The position numbers were made by a program, and so were the translations under genes. Positions 4,996 to 22,225 of a DNA stretch of 64,000 bases are shown here, one piece after another. The stretch spans positions 1,120,001 through 1,184,000 of the forward strand of contig CBDFLE010000005.1 in assembly GCA_965248925.1 (NCBI GenBank), given 5' to 3'. The DNA is from Candidatus Multivoradales bacterium. Lineage in GTDB: Bacteria > Acidobacteriota > Thermoanaerobaculia > Multivoradales > J023. The notes beneath the pieces were generated by a model. That model was not told the DNA's origin and did not search any database. It saw nothing but the letters and a program-made list of their open reading frames with translations. How positions within the stretch are numbered: the stretch's first letter is position 1; each line of letters starts with the position of its first letter.

Positions 4996-5370
4996 ATGGA
5001 ACAACGAATCGCGAGCTTTCGTCATCAGGTCGAGGTCTACTTTGGCTGCCGCCCAGGCCGCGGATGTCGGTATCCGGCTTCCCTTCGGGCAGAAGCCGTG
5101 GAGGTGGCTTTGGAGGCGCAGTCCAACGGCGATCGGTTGGGCCGGGTGGCCGCTGCTTTGGGAGTCGGTGTGGACACGCTCCGCCGCTGGATCGAGGCAG
5201 CGCCGCCGATGCCCATTCAGCTGCGGGCGGTCGAAGTCGTAGAGGCCGAAGAAGCAGCAACCATCAATCGAGGCCATCGAGAGGGCTTGGTCCTGGTGAC
5301 TGTCGCTGGCCACCGCGTGGTGGGGCTGGCTCTGGCCGACGTGGCATTGCTTCTGGAAGCGCTCGGATGA
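4996..5370 (+). CDS. tnpA: IS66 accessory protein TnpA (HTH)
   Basis: YPASLRAEAV...VAAALGVGVDTLRRW HTH; GGAGG RBS; ATGA overlap with tnpB. Confidence 0.85.
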   Translation: MEQRIASFRHQVEVYFGCRPGRGCRYPASLRAEAVEVALEAQSNGDRLGRVAAALGVGVDTLRRWIEAAPPMPIQLRAVEVVEAEEAATINRGHREGLVLVTVAGHRVVGLALADVALLLEALG

Positions 5371-5741
5371 TCGGCTCGACCCGCCGGGTCAGCGTCTACG
5401 CCTTCGGTGCGCCTGCCGACCTCCGCAAGGGGCTCGACGGTCTCTCGGGTCTGGTGACCGGCGAGCTTGACCAAGACCCTCTCTCAGGCGATCTGTTCCT
5501 ATTCGTCAATCGGGCGCAAACCCTCGCGAAGGTTCTGGTCTGGGACGGTACCGGGCTCTGTGTCTACAGCAAGCGGCTCGAGCAGGGGCGGTTTGCCTGT
5601 CTGTGGCGCGAACGGGAAGAGGACCGGCTGCGGCTGACTATGAGTGAGCTGACCTTGTTCTTGGAGGGCAGCAAGCTGATCGGAAAGATGAGGCTCTCGC
5701 CGCCCCTATTTGTGAGGGAAAAGGTTGCTGACGCAGCCTGA
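5367..5741 (+). CDS. tnpB: IS66 accessory protein TnpB
   Basis: PADLRKGLDGL...LFLFVNR...KVLVWDGTGLCVYSKRLEQGRF motif. Confidence 0.92.
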   Translation: MIGSTRRVSVYAFGAPADLRKGLDGLSGLVTGELDQDPLSGDLFLFVNRAQTLAKVLVWDGTGLCVYSKRLEQGRFACLWREREEDRLRLTMSELTLFLEGSKLIGKMRLSPPLFVREKVADAA

Positions 5742-5760
5742 ATTCTGCTCTATAATAGAC

Positions 5761-7033
5761 CACTGCTGTCCCGTTAACTTCGCAGAAAAATAGGCTCAAA
5801 CCTCCCTGGTCTTGATAGAATCAGTCATCGCTAAACGGCTGAATCAAAGGGAGATCTGAGCCTTGGCACATCATAGCACCGTCTTCGCCCAGCTACTGCA
5901 ACTGATTTCGAGACATGAATTCGAGGCCCTCGCAAAACGCCACCACGCCGGTCGCCAGTTCCGCACTGCGAGCCGCTGGTCGCAGCTGGTGGCTCTGATG
6001 ATGGCCCAGCTGTCCGGGCGTTCTAGCTTGCGCGACATCGTTGACAATCTACGAGCGCAGCGGCACAAGCTCTACCATCTCGGCTGCCGAGTCCTGTCGC
6101 GATCCAACTTGGCACGGATCAACGAAGAGAAGCCCTATCTCCTTTTTGAAGAGCTATTTGGGAGACTTCTGGGCCGTGCTCAAGCAGTGGCGCCCAAGCA
6201 TACGTTCCGGTTCAAGAACCGCTTGTTCTCGCTTGACGCCTCGGTGATAGACCTTTGTCTGTCGATATTCCCGTGGGCGAAGTTTCGTACGACCAAGGGA
6301 GCGATCAAGCTGCATGTGGGGTTGGATCACGGTGGCTACTTGCCTGCCTTCGTTGCGATCTCGGATGGAAAAACAGGTGACATCGCGGGCTGCAAGAGCC
6401 TGACGCTGCCACGAGGAAGCATCGTAGCTTGTGATCGTGGTTACAACAGCTACAGCTGGTTTCGTCAGCTGAGCGAGAAGGGTCTTTTCTTTGTGACCCG
6501 TCTGAAGCGCGGGGCCAAGTACCGCGTGACCGAACGTCGAAGAGTCAATCGTTCCAAGGGTTTGATGAGCGACCAAACGATCGAATGGACCGGTGTGAAG
6601 GCGTGTCGTGACTGCCCGATGCCTCTGCGGAGAGTAGGCTATCGCGACCCTGAGACCGGCAAGATCTACTATTTCTTGACGAACCTGTTCCGCCTGTCAC
6701 CTCAGACCATTGCCGATATCTACCACGAACGTTGGCAAATTGAACTCTTCTTCAAGTGGATCAAGCAGAATCTGAAGATCAAGACTTTCGTCGGCACCAG
6801 CCGCAACGCCGTGCTGACTCAGCTTTGGATCGCCATGTGCGTCTACCTATTGCTCGCTTTCATCAAGCACAAGCACCGTCTTTCCAGTAGTTTACGGGAG
6901 GCCTTGCGCCTCCTTCAATTGAACCTCTTTGAGCGCCGCGACCTCATGGCCCTCTTGAAACGAGAGCCGCCGCCGATCCCAGGACTAGACGAAAGACAAC
7001 TGGTAATGGTCGGAAGTTAACGGGACAGCAGTG
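5761..7033 (+). mobile_element. IS4-family insertion sequence, copy 1 (1273 bp)
   Basis: 21-bp IRs CACTGCTGTCCCGTTAACTTC / GAAGTTAACGGGACAGCAGTG; 9-bp TSD ATAATAGAC (5752-5760, 7034-7042). Confidence 0.95.
5863..7020 (+). CDS. IS4-family DDE transposase
   Basis: LDAS, DRGY and YHERWQIELFFKWIKQNL (YREK) motifs. Confidence 0.95.
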   Translation: MAHHSTVFAQLLQLISRHEFEALAKRHHAGRQFRTASRWSQLVALMMAQLSGRSSLRDIVDNLRAQRHKLYHLGCRVLSRSNLARINEEKPYLLFEELFGRLLGRAQAVAPKHTFRFKNRLFSLDASVIDLCLSIFPWAKFRTTKGAIKLHVGLDHGGYLPAFVAISDGKTGDIAGCKSLTLPRGSIVACDRGYNSYSWFRQLSEKGLFFVTRLKRGAKYRVTERRRVNRSKGLMSDQTIEWTGVKACRDCPMPLRRVGYRDPETGKIYYFLTNLFRLSPQTIADIYHERWQIELFFKWIKQNLKIKTFVGTSRNAVLTQLWIAMCVYLLLAFIKHKHRLSSSLREALRLLQLNLFERRDLMALLKREPPPIPGLDERQLVMVGS

Positions 7034-7044
7034 ATAATAGACGC

Positions 7045-8595
7045 ATGCTTCGGATCGAGAACGAACAGCGCCCCGACGTTCTGCGTCAAATTGCGCTGCT
7101 GCTCGATCGCGAGAATCGACACCTGCACGAGCGCATCAAGAATCTGATAGTTAGCAACGCACATCTTGCAGGGGCCGGCGCTGCTACCCTGCAACTTGAG
7201 CTTGAGCAACTGCAGGAGATTCTCGCTCAACGCGAGCGTAAGATCTTCGGCCCGTCCTCGGAGAAACGCCCCAGGACGCGGACCCCAGCGTCGGAGCGTA
7301 AGCCGCAGACCGGCCACGGGCCGACTCCGCAGCCCTTGCTGCCAGTGGTCGAGAAACTCCTCGAGCTACCCATTGCAGAGCAGGTTTGCCCGACCTGCGA
7401 CGGCTCCCTTCAGCCGATGGGTGATCAGACGGAAGATTCCGACGAGATCTCCGTAGTCCGGCGACACTTCATCATGGTCAAGCACCAGCGTCAGAAGTAT
7501 CGCTGTCGCTGCAACGCGGCAGTGGTCACGGCGCCAGCGCTGCCAAAGCTGATCCCTGGAGGCCGCTACGCTCCAGAGTTCGCGGTTGAGGTGGCGATCG
7601 GTAAATACCTTGATCATCTACCTCTTGAGCGCCAGAGCCGAAGCATGGCGCGGGAAGGGCTGAACGTCAGCTCGCAGACGCTGTGGGACCAGATCGAAGC
7701 TTTGGCCAGGGTGCTGACGCCGAGCTACCTGGCTCTGCATGACAAGGTGCTCATGGCTCCGGTGGTCCACGCCGACGAGACTCACTGGCGGCTGGTGACT
7801 CGTCAAGAAAATTCCAAGTGGTGGGTGTGGAGCGTGGCCAATCGGCAGGCGGTGTTCTATCGATTGTGCGGAACTCGCTCGGAAAAATCTGCCAGGTCGA
7901 TCCTCTCTGGTTATCAGGGCATCGTGGTGTGCGACGGATACTCGGCCTACAAGGCTCTGGCCAAGAGTGAGGCCAAGAGGGACGATCAGTCGGCATCCCG
8001 CGCCGGTCCTGGATTCACACTGGCCCACTGCTGGGCACACGCACGAAGAAAATTCGCCGACGCAGAGCACAACTACCCGAAACACTGCGGTCAAGCGCTG
8101 GACATGATCAGCGATCTTTTCAAAGTGGAGCGGAAGGTACCGGCTATCCAAGTTCCGGAGCCGCAAGAGCTTCTGGATCTGCGCCTGAAGCTGCGCGCCG
8201 AGCACTCCGGGCCCATTCTCAAAAAGCTGCAAGCTTGGGCTATGGAGACCAGACCCGTAGCCCTGCCGCGCAGCGGATTGGGCAAGGCAGTCAACTACCT
8301 GCTCGGCCATTGGAAAGGGCTAACGCGTTTTCTTGAAAACCCCCTAATTCCCCTCGACAACAACCTTGCCGAGCGGGAGCTGCGAGGCGTCGTCATCGGA
8401 CGCAAGAACCACTACGGGTCGCGCTCCAAGCGGGGAACCGAGGTCGCGGCGATCCTCTACAGCCTCACCGAGAGCGCCAAGCTTGCCGGCGATGAGCCCT
8501 ACGCCTACCTGCTCAAAGCAACGCGGGCGGCTCTCGAGAATCCCGGCACTGTCACCTTGCCGGCCAGCCCCGGCGATTCACCCCCACCAAACTGA
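7045..8595 (+). CDS. tnpC: IS66 transposase TnpC
   Basis: Leucine zipper, CPTC/CRC Zn ribbon, HADET, CDGY, CWAHARRKF, DNNLAERELR. Confidence 0.95.
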   Translation: MLRIENEQRPDVLRQIALLLDRENRHLHERIKNLIVSNAHLAGAGAATLQLELEQLQEILAQRERKIFGPSSEKRPRTRTPASERKPQTGHGPTPQPLLPVVEKLLELPIAEQVCPTCDGSLQPMGDQTEDSDEISVVRRHFIMVKHQRQKYRCRCNAAVVTAPALPKLIPGGRYAPEFAVEVAIGKYLDHLPLERQSRSMAREGLNVSSQTLWDQIEALARVLTPSYLALHDKVLMAPVVHADETHWRLVTRQENSKWWVWSVANRQAVFYRLCGTRSEKSARSILSGYQGIVVCDGYSAYKALAKSEAKRDDQSASRAGPGFTLAHCWAHARRKFADAEHNYPKHCGQALDMISDLFKVERKVPAIQVPEPQELLDLRLKLRAEHSGPILKKLQAWAMETRPVALPRSGLGKAVNYLLGHWKGLTRFLENPLIPLDNNLAERELRGVVIGRKNHYGSRSKRGTEVAAILYSLTESAKLAGDEPYAYLLKATRAALENPGTVTLPASPGDSPPPN

Positions 8596-8694: not shown

Positions 8695-8880
8695 TAACTC
8701 CATGAGATGCCAGTGTTTATCCCTTGAGTACCGGCGACGTGTGAAGCTTACCACGAGCACCTCCACACGCGTCAAGGGGGGCTCATGGGGAAGCACTGGC
8801 CAATCCTCCCCCACGGTCTTCAACGGTGGGCCACAACGAAACCGGCTAGTGCAGAAGTTTGCTAGGTTCCCGGCGCATCG
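8695..8880 (-). repeat. Copy 1 of dispersed non-coding element (IHF-like site + leftward sigma70-like promoter)
   Basis: Aligns with 17348-17559 and 21990-22225; TAAACACTG...TTA 25-mer, TTGACG-N19-TAAGCT on minus strand, shared GAAACCGG..GTGCAGAAG block. Confidence 0.7.
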
Positions 8881-8893
8881 AAACGCGTCAAGC

Positions 8894-8993
8894 GCTCGGC
8901 TATCGGCGGAATCTGCCGATTCCGGTGGCACCTTAATTGGCTTGCTCGGCTATCGGCGGAATCTGCCGATTCCGGTGGCACCTTAATTGGCTT
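8894..8993. repeat. Perfect 50-bp tandem duplication with internal hairpin
   Basis: GCTCGGCTATCGGCGGAATCTGCCGATTCCGGTGGCACCTTAATTGGCTT x2; ATCGGC...GCCGAT stem. Confidence 0.95.
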
Positions 8994-9037
8994 GGCCGAA
9001 AGGCCACGGCTTGGTTCTCACTGTACGCCCCTGCCTC

Positions 9038-11185
9038 TCACCTATAGTCGAGTGCGCCATCGAAAACTCTTAAGTCGATGAATTCTAGGCCAGTATCATT
9101 GCTATCATAAATCTTGATATAGAGGTTGCCGTTGATCACATGGGTGATGGTGTCCGATGAAAAGACATGGAAGTCCTCGATGGCTATGCTCTTGAAAATA
9201 TCATCAACTACGGCCGAATAGAGATCGGCGGCCTTGCTCCTCTGTGTACGGTCGTCTGCAATTAGAGTATATCGGAACCCAAATCTACTTAGATGACCCT
9301 CAAGAAACTCAGCCTCAAAACCACTAGCGACTTCTATCCCTTCGACTCGAAATTGCTCCTTGCGACAGTATGTTTGGCCGCAGAGTGATATGGCTCCTTT
9401 GTCCAGGAGAGAGGCCATGTGCTCCTGATAGTCGTTCACGGACATGCCGAATTCAAGGTCTAGATGGATTTTGCTCTTGGCGACGGTCCTCGTTCTTCCT
9501 TGGTCGATTGCATGGCGAAATAGACGCTCATTGTCCTGAAACTGCACTCTTGATGAAACATCTACCGTGAAGTCATCTGGCCTGAGAGTCATAAAGAGAA
9601 CTTCCCCGTCAAGAGTTCCTTTCAGCCAGAACCTCTTGCCGTTATTCTTGAAGGGCCAGAAGCTCCTCTTGTTCTCATGAGGATAGGTTTTTATTATCGA
9701 ATATTCCCTGCCCTGTAAGTAGAGGAGAAACTCATCAAAAGACTCATGAGAAGTAGTTGAAAGTCTAATTTTTGTGTAATCCTCAAGGAGGGAAACGTCG
9801 AAGCGAAAAGAGCGACCTTCTACGCCCGAGAGCCAGACATTACCATTCGGCTTGATTGCAATGACACCATTCTGCTTTCTTACATCCCAGGAAAAGTCGT
9901 CTTCTGGGAACACCTCGTTCAGGCATCGCTCATCCTCACAATTCTTACCCTGCATCAATAGATCCAGGAGGTCATAATCGGAAACATTTGGGGGGTTCAA
10001 GGCCAAGCTCACGGAGTTGACGCGATATTCTGGACTTTCTAGCACCTCTCCGAGGTAGCGAGATTTCGACATGTAGATCATGTCTAGCTGAGCAAAAAAT
10101 ATGGTGTCGCTATCATGATCGAAGGACATCTTGAAGGTGGCATCGGCGTCAAGCTTGTATTGTGTCGGAAAGACGAACCGAGACAAGGTGCCATGAGTGG
10201 TATCCAGGATGTAGTAACTGATCCGGTTGTGTTCCAGTAGCGAATCGGCCAATTGTCGGCGCTTGATTCGAAGTATCAACTTGTCGCCCATGCATGCCAA
10301 TATGCTTGTTTCGGAGATGTCAAAGTCAGGGTCTTCGAACAAGTCAACTCTTGAGAAGTGAGCTTCGTCTCCGTTGGATTTCCACAGGAAAGGATTGCGC
10401 TTCATGGGGCTGGTGTGGTATGCCGTACCAAACATCTTACCATCGGCCACCTTGAAGACCTCGGAGAGCCTCAAGGTGTCTTCTGGTGTCGATGTCCCAC
10501 TTCTTAGTACGCTATCGTAGCGAAGGTAGTACGAGTTATTCAGGCTACTGCCCGATGGGGCATACCAATACTGCTCATTTTGATAGATCGGGGTCAAATG
10601 CTGTTTCGATTGAGCTACATCAGAATTGGAGGGGCGACGACTTGCGTCTTCAGGTGCCGGCTGTATCAGTGTCCAACTGGCGCCATTATCGAGACTGCGA
10701 TATAAATTACCACCAATGAACATCTGGATAGAACCGTCACCGCTAGTGATTTGAGTGAACTTTGCGCCATCTGAATACAATAGAGGGCTCGCCAGATTCT
10801 TTGCGGTCTTTGCCCAGCGCGCGAAGAAGAAATCCGGAACGTTGTCGAGCTTATCTCCTTTGATTAGCGCATTCTGTTCAGACATTGCCGGGGTCGAAAC
10901 CTCCTCCCAAGATAGGCCGCTATCTAGCGACCTGTACACTCGGAATGGTTTGCATCTAAAGGCTGGAAGAAGGCCGTCCGTACCGCAGTCAACATCTTCG
11001 TTGTCAAAGTACCCGATTGCGATGAGGGCTCCACTAGTTGCTCGATGTAGATTAAGGATATTTAGCGATATGGAGTCAGCGTTGCGGATTGTGCCTAGGT
11101 CGACCCAGAGAGAAGAGTCCTCTTTGACACAGCCAAGCACTAGCACCAGCAGTGTAAGAAGCACGGGGTGATGTAGTCGTTTCAT
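9038..11185 (-). CDS. Hypothetical lipoprotein with BNR/Asp-box (beta-propeller) motifs
   Basis: Lipobox LVLG-C; YRSLDSGLSW and YRSLDNGASW Asp-boxes; visibly lower GC than backbone. Confidence 0.75.
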   Translation of the reverse strand: MKRLHHPVLLTLLVLVLGCVKEDSSLWVDLGTIRNADSISLNILNLHRATSGALIAIGYFDNEDVDCGTDGLLPAFRCKPFRVYRSLDSGLSWEEVSTPAMSEQNALIKGDKLDNVPDFFFARWAKTAKNLASPLLYSDGAKFTQITSGDGSIQMFIGGNLYRSLDNGASWTLIQPAPEDASRRPSNSDVAQSKQHLTPIYQNEQYWYAPSGSSLNNSYYLRYDSVLRSGTSTPEDTLRLSEVFKVADGKMFGTAYHTSPMKRNPFLWKSNGDEAHFSRVDLFEDPDFDISETSILACMGDKLILRIKRRQLADSLLEHNRISYYILDTTHGTLSRFVFPTQYKLDADATFKMSFDHDSDTIFFAQLDMIYMSKSRYLGEVLESPEYRVNSVSLALNPPNVSDYDLLDLLMQGKNCEDERCLNEVFPEDDFSWDVRKQNGVIAIKPNGNVWLSGVEGRSFRFDVSLLEDYTKIRLSTTSHESFDEFLLYLQGREYSIIKTYPHENKRSFWPFKNNGKRFWLKGTLDGEVLFMTLRPDDFTVDVSSRVQFQDNERLFRHAIDQGRTRTVAKSKIHLDLEFGMSVNDYQEHMASLLDKGAISLCGQTYCRKEQFRVEGIEVASGFEAEFLEGHLSRFGFRYTLIADDRTQRSKAADLYSAVVDDIFKSIAIEDFHVFSSDTITHVINGNLYIKIYDSNDTGLEFIDLRVFDGALDYR

Positions 11186-11363
11186 GAGAGGTGAACCCTT
11201 TTCGTTGGACAGGCTATTTCCTTTGCTAAGGTGGACTCATAGTCCATCAGTTCAGGCTGCGGTATTTCCGGGTTTCTTGTGGATCCGATATTTGCGACCT
11301 CTGCGGACCTAGCCAGTCAAACTTCTCCCTAAAATCCTCTGTCTCCACCTCTTCAGAGGATAC

Positions 11364-11447
11364 ATCCGCCAAGCCTTGCTGGACGGTACCTACTCGCCGC
11401 AGCCTGTGCGGCGAGTAGAGGTCCTGAAGCCCCCGGGGCATGAGCGA
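11364..11447 (+). pseudogene. Group II intron reverse transcriptase fragment (RT0/RT1 region)
   Basis: Translates IRQALLDGTYSPQPVRRVEVLKPPGHER, matching the G-x-Y-x-P-x-PVRRV-x-IPK signature. Confidence 0.8.
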
Positions 11448-11511
11448 GATGCTGCGTGGGATTGTTGGTGTCTTGCCTCCGCTCTCCGAATCTTTCCCAA
11501 CAAACAAGCCA

Positions 11512-13119
11512 CTAGCCTCTCCAATCCTTGACGTAAAGAACATTAGTGTTATTCAACTGAATCACACTCTGTTTCCGCAACATCGCGGACGCCTCTTTTC
11601 CATACTTGTCAATCTCATCAATAGCGACGAAGGACTGTTTCTCAATCGATAGATAGAAACGAAAAAGGTTCGCGACGGAGTCATTCTCGACATTCTTAAA
11701 GAGAAGCGAGTCATGCGCAATGAATGGTAGAATCGTTGCCTGGAACACCGCCAAATCTAAGACGATCAGACTTGCGTATGCCGTGCCAGTCCCAGTATCT
11801 TCGAAAACCTCGTACGTATAACTATTCTCCTCGATTCCGATCTCAGGACTCTTTCGCTCAGGCCCAAAAATCAAGGTAACAATCCTGCGAAGCGTATCAT
11901 TCAATATGTTCTTGATAAGCTCGATCTCTTCGGCCTTCCTGGCAGAGAGGCTTTTCTTAAGTCCCTTGATATCTTCTCGAAGGCACTGGTTGTTCTCGAA
12001 ATGAAGATTCTCGTGTCTCGCTTCGCCTAGATCCACTGCTAGGTCATACACACGGTCTACTATGACTGTAGGCTGATCGATAGTCGATAATGTCTTGGCC
12101 ATCCGAGCTTCGATATTCGCGATCTCAGCATCGATTCGAGCCAAGTTTTCCTTCAGGTTTGCCTCAGATCCTCGAAGCTCTGTTTTCAACAGCTTCGCAA
12201 CGCCGCTATGGAACTCCTCGACTCTCGTCAAACGCCCCTTGTCAATTTCTGGAAAAAATCTGCTTAACGCAGCAAAGTGTCGACTCTTGATATGGCGATT
12301 GCCTGTGATATTCCCTTGAATTCGAGCCAATTTGCTTTCAAGATCCAGTTTAACAGAAAGCAGTTTATCCTTATGAAGCTTCAACTCTAATACTTCACGG
12401 TTGACTACTTCCGAGATATTAGTCGCGTACTTTGCCAGGTTAACTTTAATGTCATCGATTTCAGTCTCAATCGCAGCAATCCGACTTTCATTGGCTTTGG
12501 CTTTCCGCTTGTCGATTTTCGGAATAATCTGAGTCTTGAACGCGGCGTTCAGCGCCTTCCGCTCTTCTTCTCTAACTTTGAGGCTATTGGCAAGTTTCTT
12601 GATGGGTCCAAATCGATCAAATGTCTTAATCAAGTTGTCGACGCACTCTCGACCAGGCTTGACTTGCACCACATGAAGAGGTTTTTGCACGCTTAGGTTG
12701 TCTTTGCCCCACACCCTGAAGTACAAACCAACCAAAGACCGAAAACTTATTTCCTCAAGCTGGATTCCGTAGGCTGCCTTAAGAATGGCTGTGTATTCTT
12801 CAATAGGGATCGGCGTCGTTGGCTGATAATCTTCGCTGCACTTATATACCAAATCGGGCTGAAACGTCCCTCGCCGAAAGCGCATAAGTTCCCGGTTGAA
12901 CGTGAAGGAGAAGAAATAGTCGTGGTCCCCCAGCTCGGCGACCAGATCAATATTATGCTTTAGTAATGAATTGCCGCCAAAGGCGAAGTCGATGACCATC
13001 AGGAGGGTCGACTTGCCTATGGAGTTCGTACCGTTCTCATCTCCAAGCACTACATTCAGGCCAGGGCGAAAAGGGATCCGGTCGGTGCGAAATTTGTCGC
13101 AACGAACTTCAGTCAACAT
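11512..13119 (-). CDS. ABC-three-component/Lamassu SMC-like ATPase (LmuB-like, DUF2326)
   Basis: Walker A GDENGTNSIGKST, long coiled coil, C-terminal GTGTAYASLIVLDLA...FIAHDS. Confidence 0.85.
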   Translation of the reverse strand: MLTEVRCDKFRTDRIPFRPGLNVVLGDENGTNSIGKSTLLMVIDFAFGGNSLLKHNIDLVAELGDHDYFFSFTFNRELMRFRRGTFQPDLVYKCSEDYQPTTPIPIEEYTAILKAAYGIQLEEISFRSLVGLYFRVWGKDNLSVQKPLHVVQVKPGRECVDNLIKTFDRFGPIKKLANSLKVREEERKALNAAFKTQIIPKIDKRKAKANESRIAAIETEIDDIKVNLAKYATNISEVVNREVLELKLHKDKLLSVKLDLESKLARIQGNITGNRHIKSRHFAALSRFFPEIDKGRLTRVEEFHSGVAKLLKTELRGSEANLKENLARIDAEIANIEARMAKTLSTIDQPTVIVDRVYDLAVDLGEARHENLHFENNQCLREDIKGLKKSLSARKAEEIELIKNILNDTLRRIVTLIFGPERKSPEIGIEENSYTYEVFEDTGTGTAYASLIVLDLAVFQATILPFIAHDSLLFKNVENDSVANLFRFYLSIEKQSFVAIDEIDKYGKEASAMLRKQSVIQLNNTNVLYVKDWRG

Positions 13120-13333
13120 AGGAAATGATCCGGGTGTCGAAATCTATTTCGATACATCCCAAGAGGTAGAGCACATCGATCGCCAGGAGAAATTGATCAA
13201 CGCTTTCCAACTTCTTGGCGGTTTTATTGTACAGTTTTATAAGGTCGATTGAGCCCGGTCGCTGCTCAAGGATGAGACCTACAGCGCCTAAAGCAGAGTC
13301 CTTCAGCGCCACCATCTTGTTCGGTGTGATCAT
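13109..13333 (-). CDS. ABC-three-component middle component (LmuC-like)
   Basis: 74 aa, MITPNK...FLLAIDVLYLLGCI, overlapping both the effector and ATPase genes. Confidence 0.75.
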   Translation of the reverse strand: MITPNKMVALKDSALGAVGLILEQRPGSIDLIKLYNKTAKKLESVDQFLLAIDVLYLLGCIEIDFDTRIISYVD

Positions 13334-13587
13334 TCGAATACCTCGCAGTTTTGAACGAAGAATGACGTCACGATCTCGGCCGCTTCTAGGGTATCTGGCT
13401 CAGTTTTGATGTACAACCAGTCGACGATGTTCGAAAAGACCTCGTGCTGTGGTAATCCAAGACTCTTCTGTTTAAGATAATAAACTTTCACCTGTGTCGC
13501 GATTAGGTCGGACACTGCAGGGCTCAAGCGCTCCATCTCCAGGAACTTACTCCGGATATATTGATAATAATCAGCAACATTATACTT

Positions 13588-14860
13588 CACTGCTGTCCCG
13601 TTAACTTCGCAGAAAAATAGGCTCAAACCTCCCTGGTCTTGATAGAATCAGTCATCGCTAAACGGCTGAATCAAAGGGAGATCTGAGCCTTGGCACATCA
13701 TAGCACCGTCTTCGCCCAGCTACTGCAACTGATTTCGAGACATGAATTCGAGGCCCTCGCAAAACGCCACCACGCCGGTCGCCAGTTCCGCACTGCGAGC
13801 CGCTGGTCGCAGCTGGTGGCTCTGATGATGGCCCAGCTGTCCGGGCGTTCTAGCTTGCGCGACATCGTTGACAATCTACGAGCGCAGCGGCACAAGCTCT
13901 ACCATCTCGGCTGCCGAGTCCTGTCGCGATCTAACTTGGCACGGATCAACGAAGAGAAGCCCTATCTCCTTTTTGAAGAGCTATTTGGGAGACTTCTGGG
14001 GCATGCTCAGGCAGTGGCGCCCAAGCATACGTTCCGGTTCAAGAACCGCTTGTTCTCGCTTGACGCCTCGGTGATAGACCTCTGTCTGTCGATATTCCCA
14101 TGGGCGAAGTTTCGTACGACCAAGGGAGCGATCAAGCTGCATGTGGGGTTGGATCACGGTGGCTACTTGCCTGCCTTCGTTGCGATCTCGGATGGAAAAA
14201 CAGGTGACATCGCGGGCTGCAAGAGCCTGACGCTGCCACGAGGAAGCATCGTAGCTTGTGATCGTGGTTACAACAGCTACAGCTGGTTTCGTCAGCTGAG
14301 CGAGAAGGGTCTTTTCTTTGTGACCCGTCTGAAGCGCGGGGCCAAGTACCGCGTGACCGAACGTCGAAGAGTCAATCGTTCCAAGGGTTTGATGAGCGAC
14401 CAAACGATCGAATGGACCGGTGTGAAGGCGTGTCGTGACTGCCCGATGCCTCTGCGGAGAGTAGGCTATCGCGACCCTGAGACCGGCAAGATCTACTATT
14501 TCTTGACGAACCTGTTCCGCCTGTCACCTCAGACCATTGCCGATATCTACCACGAACGTTGGCAAATTGAACTCTTCTTCAAGTGGATCAAGCAGAATCT
14601 GAAGATCAAGACTTTCGTCGGCACCAGCCGCAACGCCGTGCTGACTCAGCTTTGGATCGCCATGTGCGTCTACCTATTGCTCGCTTTCATCAAGCACAAG
14701 CACCGTCTTTCCAGTAGTTTACGGGAGGCCTTGCGCCTCCTTCAATTGAACCTCTTTGAGCGCCGCGACCTCATGGCCCTCTTGAAACGAGAGCCGCCGC
14801 CGATCCCAGGACTAGACGAAAGACAACTGGTAATCGTCGGAAGTTAACGGGACAGCAGTG
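13588..14860 (+). mobile_element. IS4-family insertion sequence, copy 2
   Basis: Same IRs and length as copy 1; 9-bp TSD ATTATACTT (13579-13587, 14861-14869). Confidence 0.95.
13690..14847 (+). CDS. IS4-family DDE transposase
   Basis: Differs from copy 1 at two residues (GRAQ/GHAQ, LVMVGS/LVIVGS). Confidence 0.95.
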   Translation: MAHHSTVFAQLLQLISRHEFEALAKRHHAGRQFRTASRWSQLVALMMAQLSGRSSLRDIVDNLRAQRHKLYHLGCRVLSRSNLARINEEKPYLLFEELFGRLLGHAQAVAPKHTFRFKNRLFSLDASVIDLCLSIFPWAKFRTTKGAIKLHVGLDHGGYLPAFVAISDGKTGDIAGCKSLTLPRGSIVACDRGYNSYSWFRQLSEKGLFFVTRLKRGAKYRVTERRRVNRSKGLMSDQTIEWTGVKACRDCPMPLRRVGYRDPETGKIYYFLTNLFRLSPQTIADIYHERWQIELFFKWIKQNLKIKTFVGTSRNAVLTQLWIAMCVYLLLAFIKHKHRLSSSLREALRLLQLNLFERRDLMALLKREPPPIPGLDERQLVIVGS

Positions 14861-15381
14861 ATTATACTTGATCTTTCTTTGAGTTGGAATCGGCATCGAT
14901 TCGTCCAATTTTGCTTCTAGACTTCTTGGGTCATACTCAAGATCTGGCTCATCGGGATAGTCCGCGACTGTGTAGAGCCCCTCAATAACAACCCGGATGT
15001 CTCTCTCGATCTTGTAGGAAGATTGAAGTGTTTGCTGCTCCTCCTGTCGAAGCAGGGATCGTTTTTTCCGCACGAGCGCCCTGTACTCGTCAGCGATTCT
15101 TGGCTTGTCAAATTTCTTATGGCATGTCGCACACAATGGAATCAAGTTGTTTGGATGATTCACGTCAGCGTGCAGCTTTACCTCATTTCTCAGCTCATAC
15201 AGTTCGCTTTTACTTGGGTTGACGGGATAGATGTGGGCTAGGTCGTACATCTTATATGACCTTAAGTTCTTGACGTAGAAGAGATCACGTCCACACAGCG
15301 GGCAAATGCCTCTAGTTTGCGTGGTTAATGCCAACTCTTCGGCAGGGCTGTATTTCCGGCGATCATTTGTCATAGGATTTC

Positions 15382-15783
15382 CGAGGTTGGATGAACTACT
15401 TCGGCATTTCGGACTATTACCGACCTGTCGCAGAAATCGACAAGTGGATCCGAAGACTCATCTGAATGTGTTACTGGAAACAGTGGCGCTGGGTGCGCAC
15501 GAAGGTCCGTCATCTGCTCGCTTTGGGAACGAGTCGTCGTCAAGCAATTTTCACCGCGCTCAGTCGCAAGAGCTACTGGGACTTGTCGAAAACCTTGGCG
15601 ACACAGACCGGAATGACGAACAAATTGCTTCAAAGTCAGGGGCTGATCAGTTTCCGCGATCTGTGGATGAAAGCCCATGGCTATGCTTGAAACGATCGTG
15701 TGCTCCATCATTGTGAATCGCCTAGTGCGGACCCGTATGCTAGGTGGCGTGTTGGCCGGGGTTAGATCCCCCGGCTACCCGAT
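15382..15783 (+). mobile_element. 3' remnant of group IIC intron (maturase X domain, domains V and VI)
   Basis: RGWMNYFG...WIRRLI*MCYWKQW...GLISFRDLW (in-frame TGA 15463); DV GAATCGCCTAGTGCGGACCCGTATGCTAGGTGG with CGC triad; DVI ending ACCCGAT. Confidence 0.9.
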
Positions 15784-17120
15784 TAGCCGTCTGCACCGGT
15801 TTGCCTAACTGCATTCCGGATGGGTGCCGGAATTGCGTTGTCGTATAGTCGGTCATCTCCGACTGACATGCCTTGTTCTAGGATGAAGTCTGCCAGAATC
15901 ATCGCCTCATCGTCGTCCACTTCGCCAGACTCTAGGATTCCAAGCAGGGAACTCTGCGCCCCCCATTGATCTGCGCCGTACGCCACTGACCACATTCCAA
16001 CAAGGCAACCGCCTCGACTCTCGGTATCGACGACAGCGTGGAACAGTCGGCCTAAGAAGCTAGCAAATCCATTCATTGCGCTGAAGGGCCATCCCACAGT
16101 TCCGAGGCACTTCTCCATTTCATCCAAGAAGACACGCACGAACCTCGCAGACTCTGCTCCTACTGCATCGCAATAGGGCGCGAGCCGATCATCGGAAGAA
16201 AAGAAGTCAATTACTGGCTCTATGTAACCGCTGTAGACGTGATCTCTATACTCGGGCTCTGCGAGTGCTCTGTGCACCTGATCCCAGTGAGGTGCCGATC
16301 CATTGTCGGCTAACAGCACCTTTAGCGCGTCATTGCGAGGCGGCGTATCGGTTCGTAATGCCTCGATTCGATCAAAGTGCTCGGCAAAGTGAGCCGCAGA
16401 TGGATAGCGCTCAGTAGCGCTTGGCCGAGTAGCCCTTTGAATTACAGGAGAGTACGAACAACGATGGTGGTGATCTGGGTCTCTGCCGGTCATGACAAAG
16501 TTGAGCAGCTTCCCTAGCGAGTAGATGTCACTCTGAACCGTAGCACTTTTGAGGCTGTCCCGCTGCTCGGGCGCAACGTAGTACGCATGGCCGTAGTTGT
16601 CGACACTGCTCCGCGTGCGGTTCGACTGAGCACTGAGGTCCCTGCCCAGGCCAAAATCGCACACGACCACAGAATTGCAGTCGCGAGTGTCCAGGACTAA
16701 TGCATTGGATGGACTGATATCCCTATGCAGGATGCCGAGCTCGTGCGCCGACTGGATTGCACTCAGAATTCGGCGGAACATTACGACGCGCTCCGGTTCC
16801 TCCAGTGCAGTGTTGTTCCTCTTAATGAACCGATGAAGATTCATAGCTGCCACAGGCATGGCGTACCAGATGCCAGGCCCAACCAAGTTTCCCGAGTGGC
16901 CTAGGAGATCAACTACGCCCGCCACGCCCCTAAGACGTTCAAGCAGTGTGATTTCCCGCTTGAGCCGTGCTTGATAGACAGGATTGTTGTTGACTGAACT
17001 CCTTAAGCTCTTCACAGCAATGCCGTCGCCAGTCTTACGGTGACTGAATCTCTTTACGAGCGCGAATGCACCCTCGCCCATGACAGCGGTAGTTTCGTAA
17101 TCGCGAAGCTCAATACTCAT
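15783..17120 (-). CDS. Soluble Ser/Thr protein kinase with uncharacterised C-terminal domain; integron-cassette-like
   Basis: GEGAFALV, AVK, HRDISPSNAL, DFGLG, YVAPEQ, DIYSLG; flanked by GTTAGCC and GGCTA(A). Confidence 0.9.
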   Translation of the reverse strand: MSIELRDYETTAVMGEGAFALVKRFSHRKTGDGIAVKSLRSSVNNNPVYQARLKREITLLERLRGVAGVVDLLGHSGNLVGPGIWYAMPVAAMNLHRFIKRNNTALEEPERVVMFRRILSAIQSAHELGILHRDISPSNALVLDTRDCNSVVVCDFGLGRDLSAQSNRTRSSVDNYGHAYYVAPEQRDSLKSATVQSDIYSLGKLLNFVMTGRDPDHHHRCSYSPVIQRATRPSATERYPSAAHFAEHFDRIEALRTDTPPRNDALKVLLADNGSAPHWDQVHRALAEPEYRDHVYSGYIEPVIDFFSSDDRLAPYCDAVGAESARFVRVFLDEMEKCLGTVGWPFSAMNGFASFLGRLFHAVVDTESRGGCLVGMWSVAYGADQWGAQSSLLGILESGEVDDDEAMILADFILEQGMSVGDDRLYDNAIPAPIRNAVRQTGADG

Positions 17121-17347
17121 TGCGAATCCGGCTAACAATAAAGGTTCTATCTGAACTCCAAGCCAAGATCTCCCATCGTGCGGACGCGCCTCCCCGAGTT
17201 CAGATGGAAGCGAGTTGTACGAAGCCGCCGCCTGGCACGGACGTTGCGTTTAGGGGTTTGTATCCCTCAGCCGGGGACGAGCCCCGAGCCATCGTGGCAG
17301 TCGAAGGCAGGTGAGATCGCGGCATAAGTAGGGGGGGATTAGAGCGC

Positions 17348-17559
17348 CTCAGAGGTCGAAAAATTCCGCCGATTTCTTCCCCGCACACGCTCTGTAAGTG
17401 CTTGACCGGTCAGTGTTTAATCCCGTCGTGCCCATAATGGAGACAGCTTACCATGCGGGGGCACTGCGATGTCAAGGGCACTGTGGGGGCAGCACTCTGC
17501 CCCGCTGCCCCGTGCTTCTCAACGGCTGACCGCACGAAACCGGTTAGTGCAGAAGGTTG
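17348..17559 (-). repeat. Copy 2 of dispersed non-coding element (truncated by IS21)
   Basis: 25-mer at 17395-17419, -10 at 17445-17450, -35 at 17470-17475; clear identity to 21990-22200. Confidence 0.8.
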
Positions 17560-17710
17560 TGTCAGTGACCGCCCATATGGAGCCAAAGCGGGATCGCCGT
17601 AATGGCGCCAGTAGAAGATCGCCGTAATGGAGCTAGTAGCTGCTCTGTTCGAGGATCTCGGGCCTCTCCCGGGGATACCTTACTGCCAGTCGAAATGGCA
17701 GGAGGTGTCC

Positions 17711-19243
17711 GTGGGGAATCGGAGGTTCGAGATGTACGAGTACCGTCATGTGCTGGTCCGAATGCGGGCTGGCGACTCAGATAGAGAATTGGCTCGTGCG
17801 GGCCTGATGGGGCGTCGCAAGTCTGGTGAATTTCGTCGTTTGGTGACGGAATTGGGCTGGCTGAAGCCGTCGCGGCCGTTGCCCGAGGTGGCGACGTTGG
17901 CGGCGCAAGCGGTCCCGAAACGACCGAAACAGTCGTCGACATCGTTGGTAGAGCCACACGCTGAGATGGTTCGTCAGTGGGCGTCCCAGGGCGTTGACGG
18001 GACGACAATCCACCAGGCGCTGGTGCGCAAGTTCGATTTCCCAGGCAGCTACTCGTCGGTGCGGCGCTATCTGCGCCGGCTGGGCAGGTCGCAGCCTCGG
18101 CGCACGGTGATCCTGGACTTTGCACCCGGCGAGGCAGCGCAGGTGGATTTCGGCTCGGGGCCGCGGCTGGTCGAGGGCGGCAGTGAGATCCGCACGTGGT
18201 TCTTCGTGATGACGCTGTGCTGGAGTCGGCACCAGTAGGCGGAGCTGGTTCTCGACCAGAAGGTGGCGACGTGGCTGGCCTGCCATCGCCGAGCCTTCGA
18301 GTTCTTCGGCGGGGTGCCCCTGCGGGTGACCATCGACAACGCCAAATGTGCGATCACGCGAGCCTGCTGGCGAGATCCGGAGGTGCAACGATCCTACGCC
18401 GAGCTCGCCGAAGGCTACGGCTTCAAGATCGACCCGTGCCCACCTCGGGATCCCCAGAAGAAGGGGCGAGTGGAGTCGGGTATCAAGTACGTGAAGCGGA
18501 ACTTCCTGCCTCTGCGGGAGTTCCGAAACCTGAGCGATGGCAATGGTCAGCTCGAAGCCTGGGTGCTCGGCCGGGCAGGCAATCGGATCCACGGCTCGAC
18601 CCGTGAGCGGCCCCTGACGCGCTTTGCCGAGACCGAGCGTGATCTGCTCCAGACCTTGCCGGCTGCCGCCCCGGAGCCTTCGACCTGGGCCCGTGCGATC
18701 GTGCCTGCAGATCACCATGTGCGCCTTGAGCATGGCCGCTACTCAGTGCCCTACACACTGATCGGTGAGCGGTTGTGGCTGCGGGCAACACCGACCGCGG
18801 TTCAGGTCTACGAGGAGTACACGATGGTGGCGGCGCACCCGCGCATGAGACCTGGAAAGCGCTCGACGGTCGATGACCACCTACCGCCGGAAGCTCTGGC
18901 GCACAAACGGCGGACACCGGATTGGTGCCGCTCGCAGGCCGAGTCGATTGGCCCTTCCTGCCAGGGGCTGATCGACGCCCTATTCGCCGACCGCGTGCTG
19001 GACAACCTGCGGGCTGCGCAAGGTGTCATCCGGCTCGCAGAGCGCTACGGAGAGGACCGATTGGAGGCCGCTTGCGAGCGGGCGCTGGCCTTCGAGAATC
19101 CGCGCTATCGGTGCGTCAAGACGATCCTCGAGCGGGGGCTCGACCAGCACTGCGTCGAGCCCCCGGAGTCCGTCCAGCTTGCCGCGAGTTACACCGGCTC
19201 GGGCCGCTTCTGCCGTGACACCCGAAATCTGTTGGCGCACTGA
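17711..19243 (+). pseudogene. istA: IS21 transposase IstA with in-frame TAG (18236-18238)
   Basis: PGEAAQVDFG, DNAK, KGRVES motifs in one frame across HQ*AE. Confidence 0.88.
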
Positions 19244-19256
19244 TGTGGAGGCCCCA

Positions 19257-20060
19257 ATGAATCCTGTACCCGAGATCGCCCCGCTGCTCAAGCGACTCCG
19301 TCTGTCGGGAATCCTCGAGAGCCTCGAGGAGCGCAATCGTCAGGCGATCACCAAGAAGCTCCCGTACACCGACTTCCTCACCCTGCTCATCCAAGACGAA
19401 GTAGCGCGGCGCGACCAGAAGAAATTCGACCTGCGCCTGAGGCGTGCGGGTTTCCAGTCGAACAAGACGATCGAGAGCTTCGACTTCGACTTCAATCCGA
19501 GCGTCCACCGCGAGCTGCTCCAAGAGCTTGCGGCCTGCCGTTTCCTCGACGAGCACGTCTGCGTGCTGATCGCCGGACCGTGCGGGACCGGCAAGAGCCA
19601 CATCGCCCAGGCGCTGGGTCACTGCGCCGTACGCGCTGGCCACGACGTGCTCTTCACCACCACGAGCAAGCTCCTCGGCTCGCTCAACGCGGCGCGCGCC
19701 ACGGGCACCTTCGAGCGTCGCTTCCAGGCCGTCGCTCGCGTCGACCTGCTGATCCTCGACGACTTCGGCCTCAAGCCCTTACGGGCACCGCAGGACGAGG
19801 ATCTCCACGATCTGGTCGCAGAGCGTTACGAGCGCACCTCGACCGTCGTCACCAGCAACCTCGATTTCACCGAGTGGGGCGACGCCTTCACTAACCGCCT
19901 GCTAGGCGCCGCCACACTCGACCGTCTGCGAGACGCCGCATACCGCGTCGTTCTCGACGGCGAGAGCTACCGAAAACCCAGGCCCATGCCGAAAGCCAGA
20001 AAGGTCGCCGAGGCCGCAAGCAAGGACCAGAAGACGAAGAAGGGAGGCCACACGGCTTGA
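19257..20060 (+). CDS. istB: IS21 helper ATPase IstB
   Basis: GPCGTGKSH Walker A, LLILDDFG Walker B, TSN, ATLDRL. Confidence 0.95.
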   Translation: MNPVPEIAPLLKRLRLSGILESLEERNRQAITKKLPYTDFLTLLIQDEVARRDQKKFDLRLRRAGFQSNKTIESFDFDFNPSVHRELLQELAACRFLDEHVCVLIAGPCGTGKSHIAQALGHCAVRAGHDVLFTTTSKLLGSLNAARATGTFERRFQAVARVDLLILDDFGLKPLRAPQDEDLHDLVAERYERTSTVVTSNLDFTEWGDAFTNRLLGAATLDRLRDAAYRVVLDGESYRKPRPMPKARKVAEAASKDQKTKKGGHTA

Positions 20061-20742: not shown

Positions 20743-21801
20743 CTAGGCTGCAAGGAAGTTCGCAGTCATGCGAGCGACTACGCTGGCGGTATGGCCGTCT
20801 GTCAGGTGGGCGTAGCGCTTGACCATGGCCAGCGTCTTGTGGCCCATAGCCTCGGCGAGTTCGGCCAACGTCGCGCCGCTCATCGCGAGGTAGCTGGCAA
20901 ATGTGTGGCGAAGATCATGGAACCGGAAATTTTTGAGGCCAGCTGCCTCACAAGTCCGCTGCCATTCGCCCTGGGGGAAGGACGTTGAGCCGGTACGGCT
21001 GGGAAAGACGAGATCGGTTCCGAGGCGTCGGGCGGTCTTCCACTGTGACAGTACCTCTTCGGCTAGCCCGCTGATGGTCAGTGAGCGGCGCTCGCCGTTC
21101 TTGGTGTGGTGGATGAGTGCCACTCCGCGATTAAAATCCACATCCCTCCATTTGAGGTTCAACAGCTCGCCGCGCCGTGCTCCGGTGCAAAGGGCCATCG
21201 CCACCAGCGGATAGAGACGGGGCTCGGTGCTGTCCTTACAGGCGGCAAGTAGCCGGCGCTTTTCGTCTTCGTCGAGGAAGCGAGCACGGCCACGTCCTTG
21301 AGCGGGTTTGACGACTCTCAGACAGGGGTTGTCGTCCATCCAGAACCATTCCTTGACACCAGCGCTGAACGCTCCGCTCAAGATGGTGAGGTAGCGATGC
21401 ACGGTACCCGCCGCTAGTTGCTTGCCAGAGATCCCCTTGCCGCTGGTCAGGCCGTCTCTTGCCTCGGCGATGATGGCGGGGGTGACCTGGCTGAGCCGTG
21501 TATTTTCTCCCAGCGCCTGGCACCACCACCGAAGATTACGGGCGGTGTCCTTGGCTCGTGCCAGCCGGGGGACTTTCACTTCGATGTAGCGATCGATAAG
21601 ATCGCCCACGGTGTGCTGTTCGGCTTCGGCTTCCGGCTGATAGCGGCGTTGCCGTATCGCCTCAGTCGTACTATCGCCCCATCGTTGGGCTTCGCGCCGC
21701 GTGGAAAAAGTCTCTGAAGCCCGAGGATGCCCCTTCAAGAAAATCTGTGCCCGATACCGGATCTTGCCCTTCGCCGTCGTACGCTTTTCGATGTGTGCCA
21801 T
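20743..21801 (-). CDS. Tyrosine recombinase / phage-type integrase
   Basis: TGARRGE, TKNG, FHDLRHT, MGH...KRYAHL catalytic residues; N-terminal arm-binding-like domain; GGAGG RBS. Confidence 0.95.
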   Translation of the reverse strand: MAHIEKRTTAKGKIRYRAQIFLKGHPRASETFSTRREAQRWGDSTTEAIRQRRYQPEAEAEQHTVGDLIDRYIEVKVPRLARAKDTARNLRWWCQALGENTRLSQVTPAIIAEARDGLTSGKGISGKQLAAGTVHRYLTILSGAFSAGVKEWFWMDDNPCLRVVKPAQGRGRARFLDEDEKRRLLAACKDSTEPRLYPLVAMALCTGARRGELLNLKWRDVDFNRGVALIHHTKNGERRSLTISGLAEEVLSQWKTARRLGTDLVFPSRTGSTSFPQGEWQRTCEAAGLKNFRFHDLRHTFASYLAMSGATLAELAEAMGHKTLAMVKRYAHLTDGHTASVVARMTANFLAA

Positions 21802-21905
21802 GAGTTCCTCCAAACAGGTCGTCCCCGTGGGACGGATTTCTGTGGGGTACTCAAGGGGAAGCACTGGCCAACAACGCCCCACTGCATACAAAACGTCGCG
21901 AGACG

Positions 21906-21989: not shown

Positions 21990-22225
21990 GGGTCTCAGAG
22001 CCCAAAAATCCCGTCGATTTCTTCCAAGCGCACACTCTGTAAGTGCTGGACCAGTCAGTGTTTAATCCCGTCGTACCCATGATGAGAGTAGCTTGCCACT
22101 TCGCGTCTTCTGGGTGTCAAGGGGCACTGGCGGCGCAGCACTCTGCCCTGTTGCCCCATGGTTCTCAACGGCGGGCCACACGAAACCGGTTGATGCAGAA
22201 GTCTGCCAGCTTCCGGCGCATGTCG
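21990..22225 (-). repeat. Copy 3 of dispersed non-coding element
   Basis: 25-mer at 22040-22064, -10 at 22090-22095, -35 at 22115-22120. Confidence 0.8.

Follow-up and report, generated by a model that had tools for sequence, protein, structure and literature searches.

Can a group II intron carry a defence operon? The question is raised by a locus in a 64,000-nucleotide stretch of Candidatus Multivoradales bacterium DNA (contig CBDFLE010000005.1, positions 1,120,001 to 1,184,000, the whole of which is here called the window), in which two plus-strand pieces of a group IIC intron bracket a minus-strand operon of the Lamassu/ABC-3C defence type. A first interpretation, made without database searches and referred to below as the sequence-only reading, had described the operon as nested antisense inside the intron, and had proposed either a cargo-loaded intron derivative that once moved a defence system or an intron used as a neutral landing site. 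If true, carriage of a defence operon by an intron would open a new path for the mobility of immune genes, but the evidence speaks against it. The locus is a decayed mosaic rather than a functional unit, and the association of intron and operon is in all likelihood incidental, under either of the two histories that best account for it. Rather than a new mode of mobility, the pairing seems to be a chance outcome within a crowded genomic island. The history that we modestly favour, with a probability of about 0.5, consists of two intron insertions, one behind a kinase gene and the other behind the operon, that were later eroded by deletions. The features of the locus are the following.

11362..11466, plus strand: left relic of the group IIC intron reverse transcriptase (RT) open reading frame (ORF), residues ~59-95, RT0/RT1 region (tblastn, blastn, alignment).
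11512..13119, minus strand: ABC-3C ATPase, 535 aa, DUF2326/YydD-type, with a predicted LmuB-like SMC/Rad50 fold and a long coiled-coil insertion.
13109..13333, minus strand: ABC-3C middle component MC7, 74 aa, in the LmuC position (Pfam MC7, ORF coordinates).
13330..13587, minus strand: C-terminal part of the split effector gene (CTD11 docking domain), 98 aa (Pfam CTD11).
13588..14860, plus strand: IS4-family insertion sequence (IS), 1273 bp, with a transposase ORF at 13690-14847.
14870..15373, minus strand: N-terminal part of the split effector gene (HNH and the start of CTD11), 200 aa (Pfam HNH_2, PADLOC).
15374..15690, plus strand: coding part of the right relic, RT thumb/X (maturase) domain, residues ~326-430, native stop at 15688-15690.
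15691..15783, plus strand: RNA part of the right relic, domain V (DV) at ~15718-15747 and domain VI (DVI) at ~15750-15783 (alignment to homologues, folds).
15783..17138, minus strand: Ser/Thr kinase gene, 451 aa (Pfam Pkinase; PADLOC Stk2-like).

Homology searches confirmed both plus-strand pieces (11362-11466 and 15374-15783) and showed that they lie colinear and in intron order on the two sides of the minus-strand operon. In tblastn searches full-length group II RTs of 430-444 aa matched positions 11364-11438/11447 with residues 59-83/86 (71-84% identity, E 4e-8 to 9e-7), and full-length RTs matched 15382-15687 with residues 329-430 (83-89% identity, E to 7e-58); no other place gave a convincing match. 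At the DNA level, positions 11363-11437 matched an intact intron of the relative G017 (83%, E 1.6e-15, blastn), with a homology that weakens but reaches ~11466 with a 1-nt indel in the alignment, while the right relic extends from 15374/15382 to 15784/15788 against many intact introns (blastn, 81 intron loci) and is 93% identical to the G017 intron. The right relic also matched Pfam GIIM with 38.2 bits (cut-off 23), and of 2039 candidates 2010 were related to its X domain at E≤1e-5, with 430-aa proteins of 89% identity as the best full-length matches. The regions that flank the left relic, 11186-11361 (176 nt) and 11467-11511 (45 nt), were no better than shuffles when compared with the G017 intron. 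A possible further RT piece beside the left relic ('PPLSESF') was dropped, as these flanks are not intron-like.

The two relics belong to one intron lineage, as the sequence-only reading had held. Both match the same RT proteins, P0002 and P0004 (84% for the left and 89% for the right relic, tblastn), and both have the same nearest intact intron, located on contig C402 of the same-family relative G017, in which the regions matching the two relics are 729 nt apart. P0002 aligned end to end (residues 14-424, E 1e-131, 443 bits) with the GsI-IIC RT (6ar1), far above the 144 bits obtained with the IIA RT LtrA and the 98 bits with the IIB RT 6me0, which supports the designation group IIC. This protein passes TIGR04416 (382 bits, cut-off 300) and its ORF ends after the X domain. 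The comparison therefore supports the assignment of the relic lineage to group IIC with a class C, endonuclease-less RT.

A CGC catalytic triad in place of AGC in DV is typical of group IIC introns. The triad reported for this locus is kept, as the alignment of the homologue L007 to the RF00029 model, when carried over to the window, places the window's UCGCC in the column where the CCGCC of L007 aligns to the GAGCC of the model; PMC4424553 mentions CGC 'for some introns'. No Rfam intron model matched the window, whether gathering thresholds were applied or the limit was relaxed to E≤10 (over 6 kb and over 121 nt), and for this reason DV and DVI were accepted only through alignment to homologues; intact homologues, when scanned, showed RF02001 and RF01998 in 6/6 loci and RF00029 in 1/6. 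DV still folds with all its pairs kept, and the basal helix of DVI is damaged. The 3′ end of the intron is at 15783, or at 15786 if a conserved TAG is counted as intron, and the TAA stop codon of the kinase gene (complement of 15783-15785) overlaps the last intron base, 15783. At the other end of the right relic, the ATG of the effector gene (15373-15371) is found, in agreement with what had been noted before, 8 nt from the X-domain match at 15382, and 0-3 nt from the start of the intron DNA homology.

Little else of the intron is left. The right relic has an in-frame TGA at 15463-15465. No homology to domains I to IV (DI-DIV) was found anywhere in the 8-18 kb interval of the window (blastn against the intron loci), nor were RT residues 1-58 or ~96-325 found there. 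A trans-acting intact RT of this lineage, which the sequence-only reading had suggested looking for, is not present in the genome, where the best other RTs are ≤36% identical to P0002 and the three other intron RTs with a GIIM domain are of a different lineage. Since DI-DIV are missing, the ORF has an in-frame stop and an indel, DVI is damaged, and an intact RT of the lineage is lacking in the genome, the intron, incomplete in both ribozyme and RT ORF, is dead and can neither splice nor move. The absence of DI-DIV and of RT residues 1-58, together with the damage to DVI, means that the operon lies between two relics and not inside an existing intron; the lineage proposed in the sequence-only reading holds. 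Separately, the genome has ORFs of 838-990 aa with RT domains that are 32-36% identical to the intron RT (for example G000:C6:1642761, 286689 and 308295), and these may be defence-associated or CRISPR-associated RT fusions.

Two side observations concern the left relic. Positions 11390-11418 include a perfect 12-bp inverted repeat with a minimum free energy (MFE) of -29.7 kcal/mol on the minus strand (z -3.4), and the intact G017 intron has the matching stem with one wobble pair and one mismatch. On the operon strand this hairpin is ~100 nt downstream of the ATPase stop codon and is not followed by a T-run; it could act as a transcript-end hairpin of the operon, and such a role might be the reason for the survival of the left relic. 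The second observation comes from sequencing run X8, which belongs to another organism and a different study. Over 168 nt of the left flank (11200-11367), a 430-nt contig of this run, of depth 2.6, shows a single difference (99% identity); the match ends ~5 nt into the left relic and the contig itself ends 14 nt later. Nothing of the operon was recovered in the X8 assembly, in which there may be a very close relative that differs exactly at the left-relic breakpoint. Apart from the left flank, the contigs of runs X5 and X8 cover only the IS and intron-like parts, and a left-flank 27-mer had 0 matches in genome contigs.

The bracketed genes are three ORFs that overlap on the minus strand between 11512 and 15373, and Pfam, PADLOC and the ORF calls bear out the earlier identification of an antisense ABC-3C/Lamassu-type operon. 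The ATPase matches Pfam DUF2326 with 57.2 bits (cut-off 28.7), the sole Pfam family that it passes by sequence; the small protein matches MC7 ('ABC-3C middle component 7') with 55.8 bits (cut-off 27); and the two effector pieces match CTD11 (74.8 bits, cut-off 27.7, in the 98-aa piece) and HNH_2 (34.5 bits, cut-off 21, in the 200-aa piece), the latter also matching the PADLOC PDC-M68A and HNH effector models. The nearest names in PADLOC were those of the candidate system PDC-M68A/B, with matches that were weak and partial (for the ATPase, N-terminal matches to PDC-M68B), and its LmuB models matched only the P-loop region of the ATPase, residues 11-57. An AlphaFold model of the ATPase (mean pLDDT 82.3) has a split ABC head with long coiled-coil helices, residues 171-418, between the halves, and Foldseek searches with this model returned YydD (9a6c, E 7e-18) followed by LmuB (9hqu, 9hqx, 9uxh, 9ux7 and 9nyg, E 7e-12 to 1e-8; chains of four Lamassu entries). 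The sequence profile of the ATPase family found no solved relative among Protein Data Bank sequences, and nothing useful was found in the literature on DUF2326. Homologues of the ATPase are numerous (727 at E≤1e-10, best 68% identity) and occur in many phyla. By these matches the operon can be considered an ordinary three-gene ABC-3C system of the Lamassu superfamily, DUF2326/YydD branch. Promoters and terminators predicted by a simple scan of 11000-17400 were no more numerous than in shuffles and none fell in the relics, a result that is silent on transcription of the operon; no RNA runs on record are listed as holding this stretch.

Its mode of action can be predicted from known relatives. 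In the review PMC10586767, ABC-3C is placed within the Lamassu superfamily, HNH is one of the effector domains listed for LmuA, and the C-terminal domains serve as docking modules. For Salmonella LmuACB, a preprint (bioRxiv 10.1101/2025.03.14.643221) describes an effector oligomerisation domain that is sequestered by two LmuB protomers and LmuC and, upon activation, release of the effector and formation of an active nuclease tetramer. By analogy, the nuclease effector would be kept inactive by an ATPase dimer and the middle component, acting through the effector's C-terminal domain, until foreign DNA structures are sensed; the effector would then be released, cut DNA and abort the infection. 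In such a mechanism CTD11 would be the sequestered part and HNH the weapon.

The system described here is presumably inactive. The effector gene is split by an IS4-family element, which the sequence-only reading, correct on the anatomy of the operon, had overlooked together with the loss of the ribozyme and the stop, frameshift and DVI damage. The IS has 21-bp perfect terminal inverted repeats and is flanked by a 9-bp target duplication, ATTATACTT, at 13579-13587 and 14861-14869; its transposase matches NCBIfam NF033592 (IS4-family) with 287.6 bits (cut-off 115) as well as Pfam DUF4372 and DDE_Tnp_1. Removal of the IS and one copy of the duplication restores an effector of 253 aa with no stop, which has an end-to-end match in 77/80 homologous loci. 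The genome holds six further copies of the IS that are 99-100% identical, one of them at 5761-7039 of the window. The clean 9-bp duplication, the intact 253-aa reading and the near identity of the copies indicate that the knock-out of the effector was recent and clean. The cut point is inside CTD11 and, with this domain interrupted, the defence system is presumably dead. No IS-free allele was found in the contigs of the sequencing runs, and contigs drop rare variants. A side observation concerns the copy at ~5761-7039, which interrupts an IS66 element located at 5064-8595 (orf2-like gene 5064-5741, transposase 7045-8595) and has its own 9-bp duplication, ATAATAGAC; the IS has thus been active recently and more than once in the island.

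Does the operon keep company with introns elsewhere? We compared 160 homologous operon loci, 80 from genomes and 80 from metagenomes. The effector is upstream of the ATPase, in the order effector-MC7-ATPase, in 79/80 genome and 74/80 metagenome loci, and MC7 was detected by tblastn in 71/80 and 69/80, respectively. A group II RT was found in the flanks of 0/160 (tblastn with two RTs, E≤1e-3, a search that short relics of other lineages would escape), and neither the kinase gene nor the neighbouring gene for a 715-aa protein was found in the flanks of any of the 160 (tblastn, E≤1e-3). Upstream of the ATPase gene, 121 loci offered at least 2 kb of sequence; on the downstream side, 119 loci offered at least 1 kb. 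With regard to a cargo-loaded intron, this lack of intron flanks is an outcome that the sequence-only reading had itself named as a refutation. The operon is single-copy; the genome holds no second copy of it, of the composite, or of either junction flank, and in 40 relatives only the IS, the relics and some repeats were matched, with no match to operon DNA. Metagenome contigs gave 0 matches to the right-junction 24-mer, and no extra genes are carried by the intron copies that were examined in the relatives G017 and G010. The statement that no intron carrying a defence operon is known agrees with the literature that we surveyed by titles and abstract openings, where no natural case was found.

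How the pieces came together is best approached through the insertion habits of related introns. According to Leon et al. 2010 (PMC3001079), the bottom strand of attC sites is the target of IIC-attC introns, which thus come to lie between ORF and attC, in the orientation opposite to that of the adjacent genes; insertion is immediately behind the stop codon of an ORF, beside a bulged stem-loop. The hosts in Table 3 of that paper include Nitrosomonas europaea, Ca. Accumulibacter phosphatis and Ca. Methylomirabilis. These hosts recur among the homologues of the window's intron (N. europaea, L067 and L069; Ca. Accumulibacter phosphatis, L082; Ca. Methylomirabilis, P0070). The 5′ exon of the window's own intron has been lost. 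The upstream exons of homologous loci have a mean MFE of -21.2 kcal/mol versus -16.5 for shuffles and -12.8 for distant flank, and 30 of 67 motif matches, a set that includes some non-5′ ends, fall below their own shuffles by more than 5 kcal/mol; the folds, on inspection, are mostly bulged stem-loops ending a few nt before the insertion site. A precedent is found in the class 1 integron of plasmid NZ_MF564291.1 (L265, 21314-27591), where aadA1 has an intron on each side, both introns pointing the same way and lying antisense to the cassettes; for one of them the Rfam DV-DVI match stops at the first base of the fosE stop codon (3859), while the other ends 7 nt from aadA1. The end of the window's intron at 15783, at the TAA of the kinase gene, has the same geometry as the intron at the fosE stop, which argues that the right relic keeps an authentic retrohoming junction and, consequently, that the kinase gene was the intron's neighbour from the start.

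The history that we favour, which the sequence-only reading had not considered, would then run as follows. A first copy would have inserted behind the stop codon of the kinase gene, where its 3′ junction survives at 15783, and a second behind the ATPase gene, so that two copies in the same orientation flanked an operon that was never carried or moved by an intron. Deletions would have removed most of both, leaving non-overlapping pieces unable to recombine and delete the operon. Direct repeats of an intron invite loss of the operon by recombination, and survivors should therefore carry non-overlapping stumps, as is seen. The two-copy history is preferred because it needs only processes known for the lineage plus deletions, while a one-intron history needs an insertion that left no signature. 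The relics also differ in their distance from the G017 intron: the third codon position differs in 10/25 codons of the left relic and 9/102 of the right, and the gap in identity between the relics, -0.121, compares with a range of -0.096 to +0.044 in 12 intact intron pairs. The identity gap and the third-position contrast are suggestive, no further, of two intron sources.

Several points weigh against this history. The left relic is an internal piece of the RT, 45 nt from the ATPase stop codon, and not a 3′ end. A second copy should have left such an end, and the 45 nt in between are not intron-like, so that three deletions are needed. The third-position contrast comes from 25 codons, and one intact pair, L031-L084, is similarly skewed. 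A single broken intron would leave just such colinear fragments without overlap, and the right junction, 0-3 nt from the effector ATG, is an unlikely end point for a random deletion. As to the lineage, it is the host names shared with Table 3 of PMC3001079 that suggest membership of the IIC-attC clade, and P0002 is only 52-54% identical to the RTs of integron-borne introns. The window shows no recognisable attC site or target stem-loop, and 0/47 matches to integron integrase in the genome were above cut-off; the recombinase of the island (20743-21891) was rejected as an IntI, with 43.7 bits versus a cut-off of 265. Finally, the defence activity of the operon is predicted from its family membership.

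The strongest competitor, which we regard as possible and rather less probable, is a single intron that served as a neutral landing site. It would have inserted behind the kinase gene, the operon would have replaced the RT core (residues ~96-325) by illegitimate recombination, and a later deletion would have taken DI-DIV and RT residues 1-58. The relics are colinear, non-overlapping and in the same orientation, they share G017 as nearest relative, and their counterparts there, 729 nt apart, lie within one intact intron; the difference in their identities is barely beyond the spread of intact pairs, and a dead intron is a harmless landing place for new DNA. For the landing site proposed by the sequence-only reading a mechanism of insertion was not found: the two operon/intron junctions show no terminal repeats, no target duplication, no repeats linking them and no recombinase or transposase signature. 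Moreover, the operon must arrive trimmed exactly at its ATG and ~690 nt of intron must vanish in the same or later events; the habit of the lineage (PMC3001079) and the plasmid precedent explain two relics with no insertion of an operon at all, and the fourfold difference in third-position divergence is left to be accommodated.

Very unlikely, in our view, is that the locus is a fossil of intron-assisted cassette genesis, in which two IIC-attC-type introns would have come to surround a promoter-less defence operon outside an integron. Leon and Roy reportedly proposed introns as intermediates that join genes to attC sites or move them by recombination between introns, and if true the present locus would be the first case with an anti-phage system. 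An integron reading of the island was rejected. Downstream of the gene for the 715-aa protein there is a 50-nt tandem duplication and no attC cores were found. The repeats at 8771-8878, 17330-17559 and 21994-22201 were rejected as attC sites, being not attC-like and probably related to IS21.

The cargo-loaded intron is less probable than the cassette fossil and is close to refuted. In that reading, domain IV of a formerly mobile intron would have housed the operon, which would have spread through retrohoming with the help of an RT acting in trans. What speaks for it is topology only, namely an operon at the position of the RT core between colinear pieces, with the DV triad kept. The whole 5′ ribozyme is missing (DI-DIV; the ribozyme 5′ two-fifths), and the antisense orientation of the operon implies that an intron transcript would carry its antisense RNA. 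The idea that such an intron moved the defence system is further contradicted by the lack of a second composite in the genome, of an operon match in the 40 relatives, of the junction 24-mer in metagenome contigs and of an intact RT of the lineage in the genome. The 0/160 count of intron flanks, the lack of extra genes in the G017 and G010 copies, and the absence of a natural case among the titles and abstract openings surveyed point the same way. A chimeric joining of intron pieces and operon in the assembly is a negligible prospect, as both junctions are bridged with no differences by short-read contigs (11200-13616 and 14833-15900) of runs X1 and X2, which come from one sample that is probably the source of the assembly, so that the arrangement is real, and the IS has a clean 9-bp duplication, even if a region rich in IS copies and intron relatives can mislead assemblers.

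The two-copy history, like its competitor, is set in a region crowded with mobile DNA. G+C content is lower at ~8950-17100, where the relics and the operon are found, than around it (45-55% versus ~58-67%), and this stretch is part of a larger island with an IS66 element, two IS4-family copies, an IS21 element and a tyrosine recombinase gene. The kinase gene is outside the ABC-3C system, with no relative near any of the 160 homologous operons and no close orthologue in the 40 relatives. The product of the 715-aa gene is a putative lipoprotein with BNR-like SxDxGxSW repeats and no Pfam match; the duplication just past its stop codon, at 8892-8991 on the minus strand, is an exact tandem duplication of ~50 nt with a small hairpin. 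The IS21-family element occupies 17627-20060, with istA in two ORFs (17627-18238 and 18263-19243) and istB at 19023-20060, and is adjoined by the tyrosine recombinase gene (20743-21891, minus strand). A repeat of ~230 nt is present at 17330-17559, just upstream of istA, again near 22 kb at 21994-22201, and partly at 8771-8878, with copies 82-90% identical; it also occurs at G000:C6:5021157-5021383 and in many contigs of G004, G010 and G017, and probably represents either the end of an IS21-family element or a small non-autonomous one. Screening for integron integrases also revealed ~15 near-identical genes for a 372-aa tyrosine recombinase elsewhere in the genome, in two clusters (G000:C5:923-976 kb and C6:3.50-3.52 Mb), several of them 7-12 kb apart, which suggests tandem arrays of one integrative element.

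Taken together, the locus is a new instance of known things: a DUF2326-branch Lamassu-type operon, IIC-attC-like relics outside an integron, and an IS knock-out. It documents the gathering and decay of mobile elements in defence islands, the work of a IIC-attC-like intron lineage outside integrons, where the genome has no integron integrase, and a DUF2326/YydD-branch Lamassu-type system presumably silenced by a recently active IS. It also carries a caution for annotation, as fragments of a gene that lie colinear on the two sides of an operon are not necessarily a sign of nesting.

Among known systems, the relics resemble IIC-attC introns in their endonuclease-less class C RT, in the Rfam ribozyme modules shared by intact copies of the lineage, in their orientation opposite to the adjacent genes and in a 3′ end that touches the stop codon of the neighbouring ORF; as on NZ_MF564291.1, a gene unit is found between two pieces in the same orientation, which are separate copies there and would be so here. 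They differ from IIC-attC introns in being reduced to ~105 and ~410 nt, in the lack of an integron integrase in the window or genome and of a recognisable attC, in an RT that is 52-54% identical, and in that the flanked unit is a 2.6-kb three-gene defence operon and not a one-gene resistance cassette. The operon shares with Lamassu/ABC-3C systems (LmuA-LmuC-LmuB) the order of effector, small middle component and SMC-like ATPase, the overlapping ORFs, an effector with an N-terminal nuclease and a C-terminal docking domain and, in the predicted model, an ATPase fold like that of the LmuB chains; it differs in that its ATPase belongs to the DUF2326/YydD branch, with LmuB models reaching the P-loop region only, and in that its effector gene is interrupted by an IS. 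According to Zimmerly and Semper 2015 (PMC4424553), in bacteria most copies of group II introns have been truncated or inactivated, and they are found among other mobile DNA. The present intron fits this description, as an inactivated copy outside housekeeping genes amid IS elements and a recombinase gene, and departs from the usual single 5′-truncated stump in consisting of two pieces around an unrelated operon.

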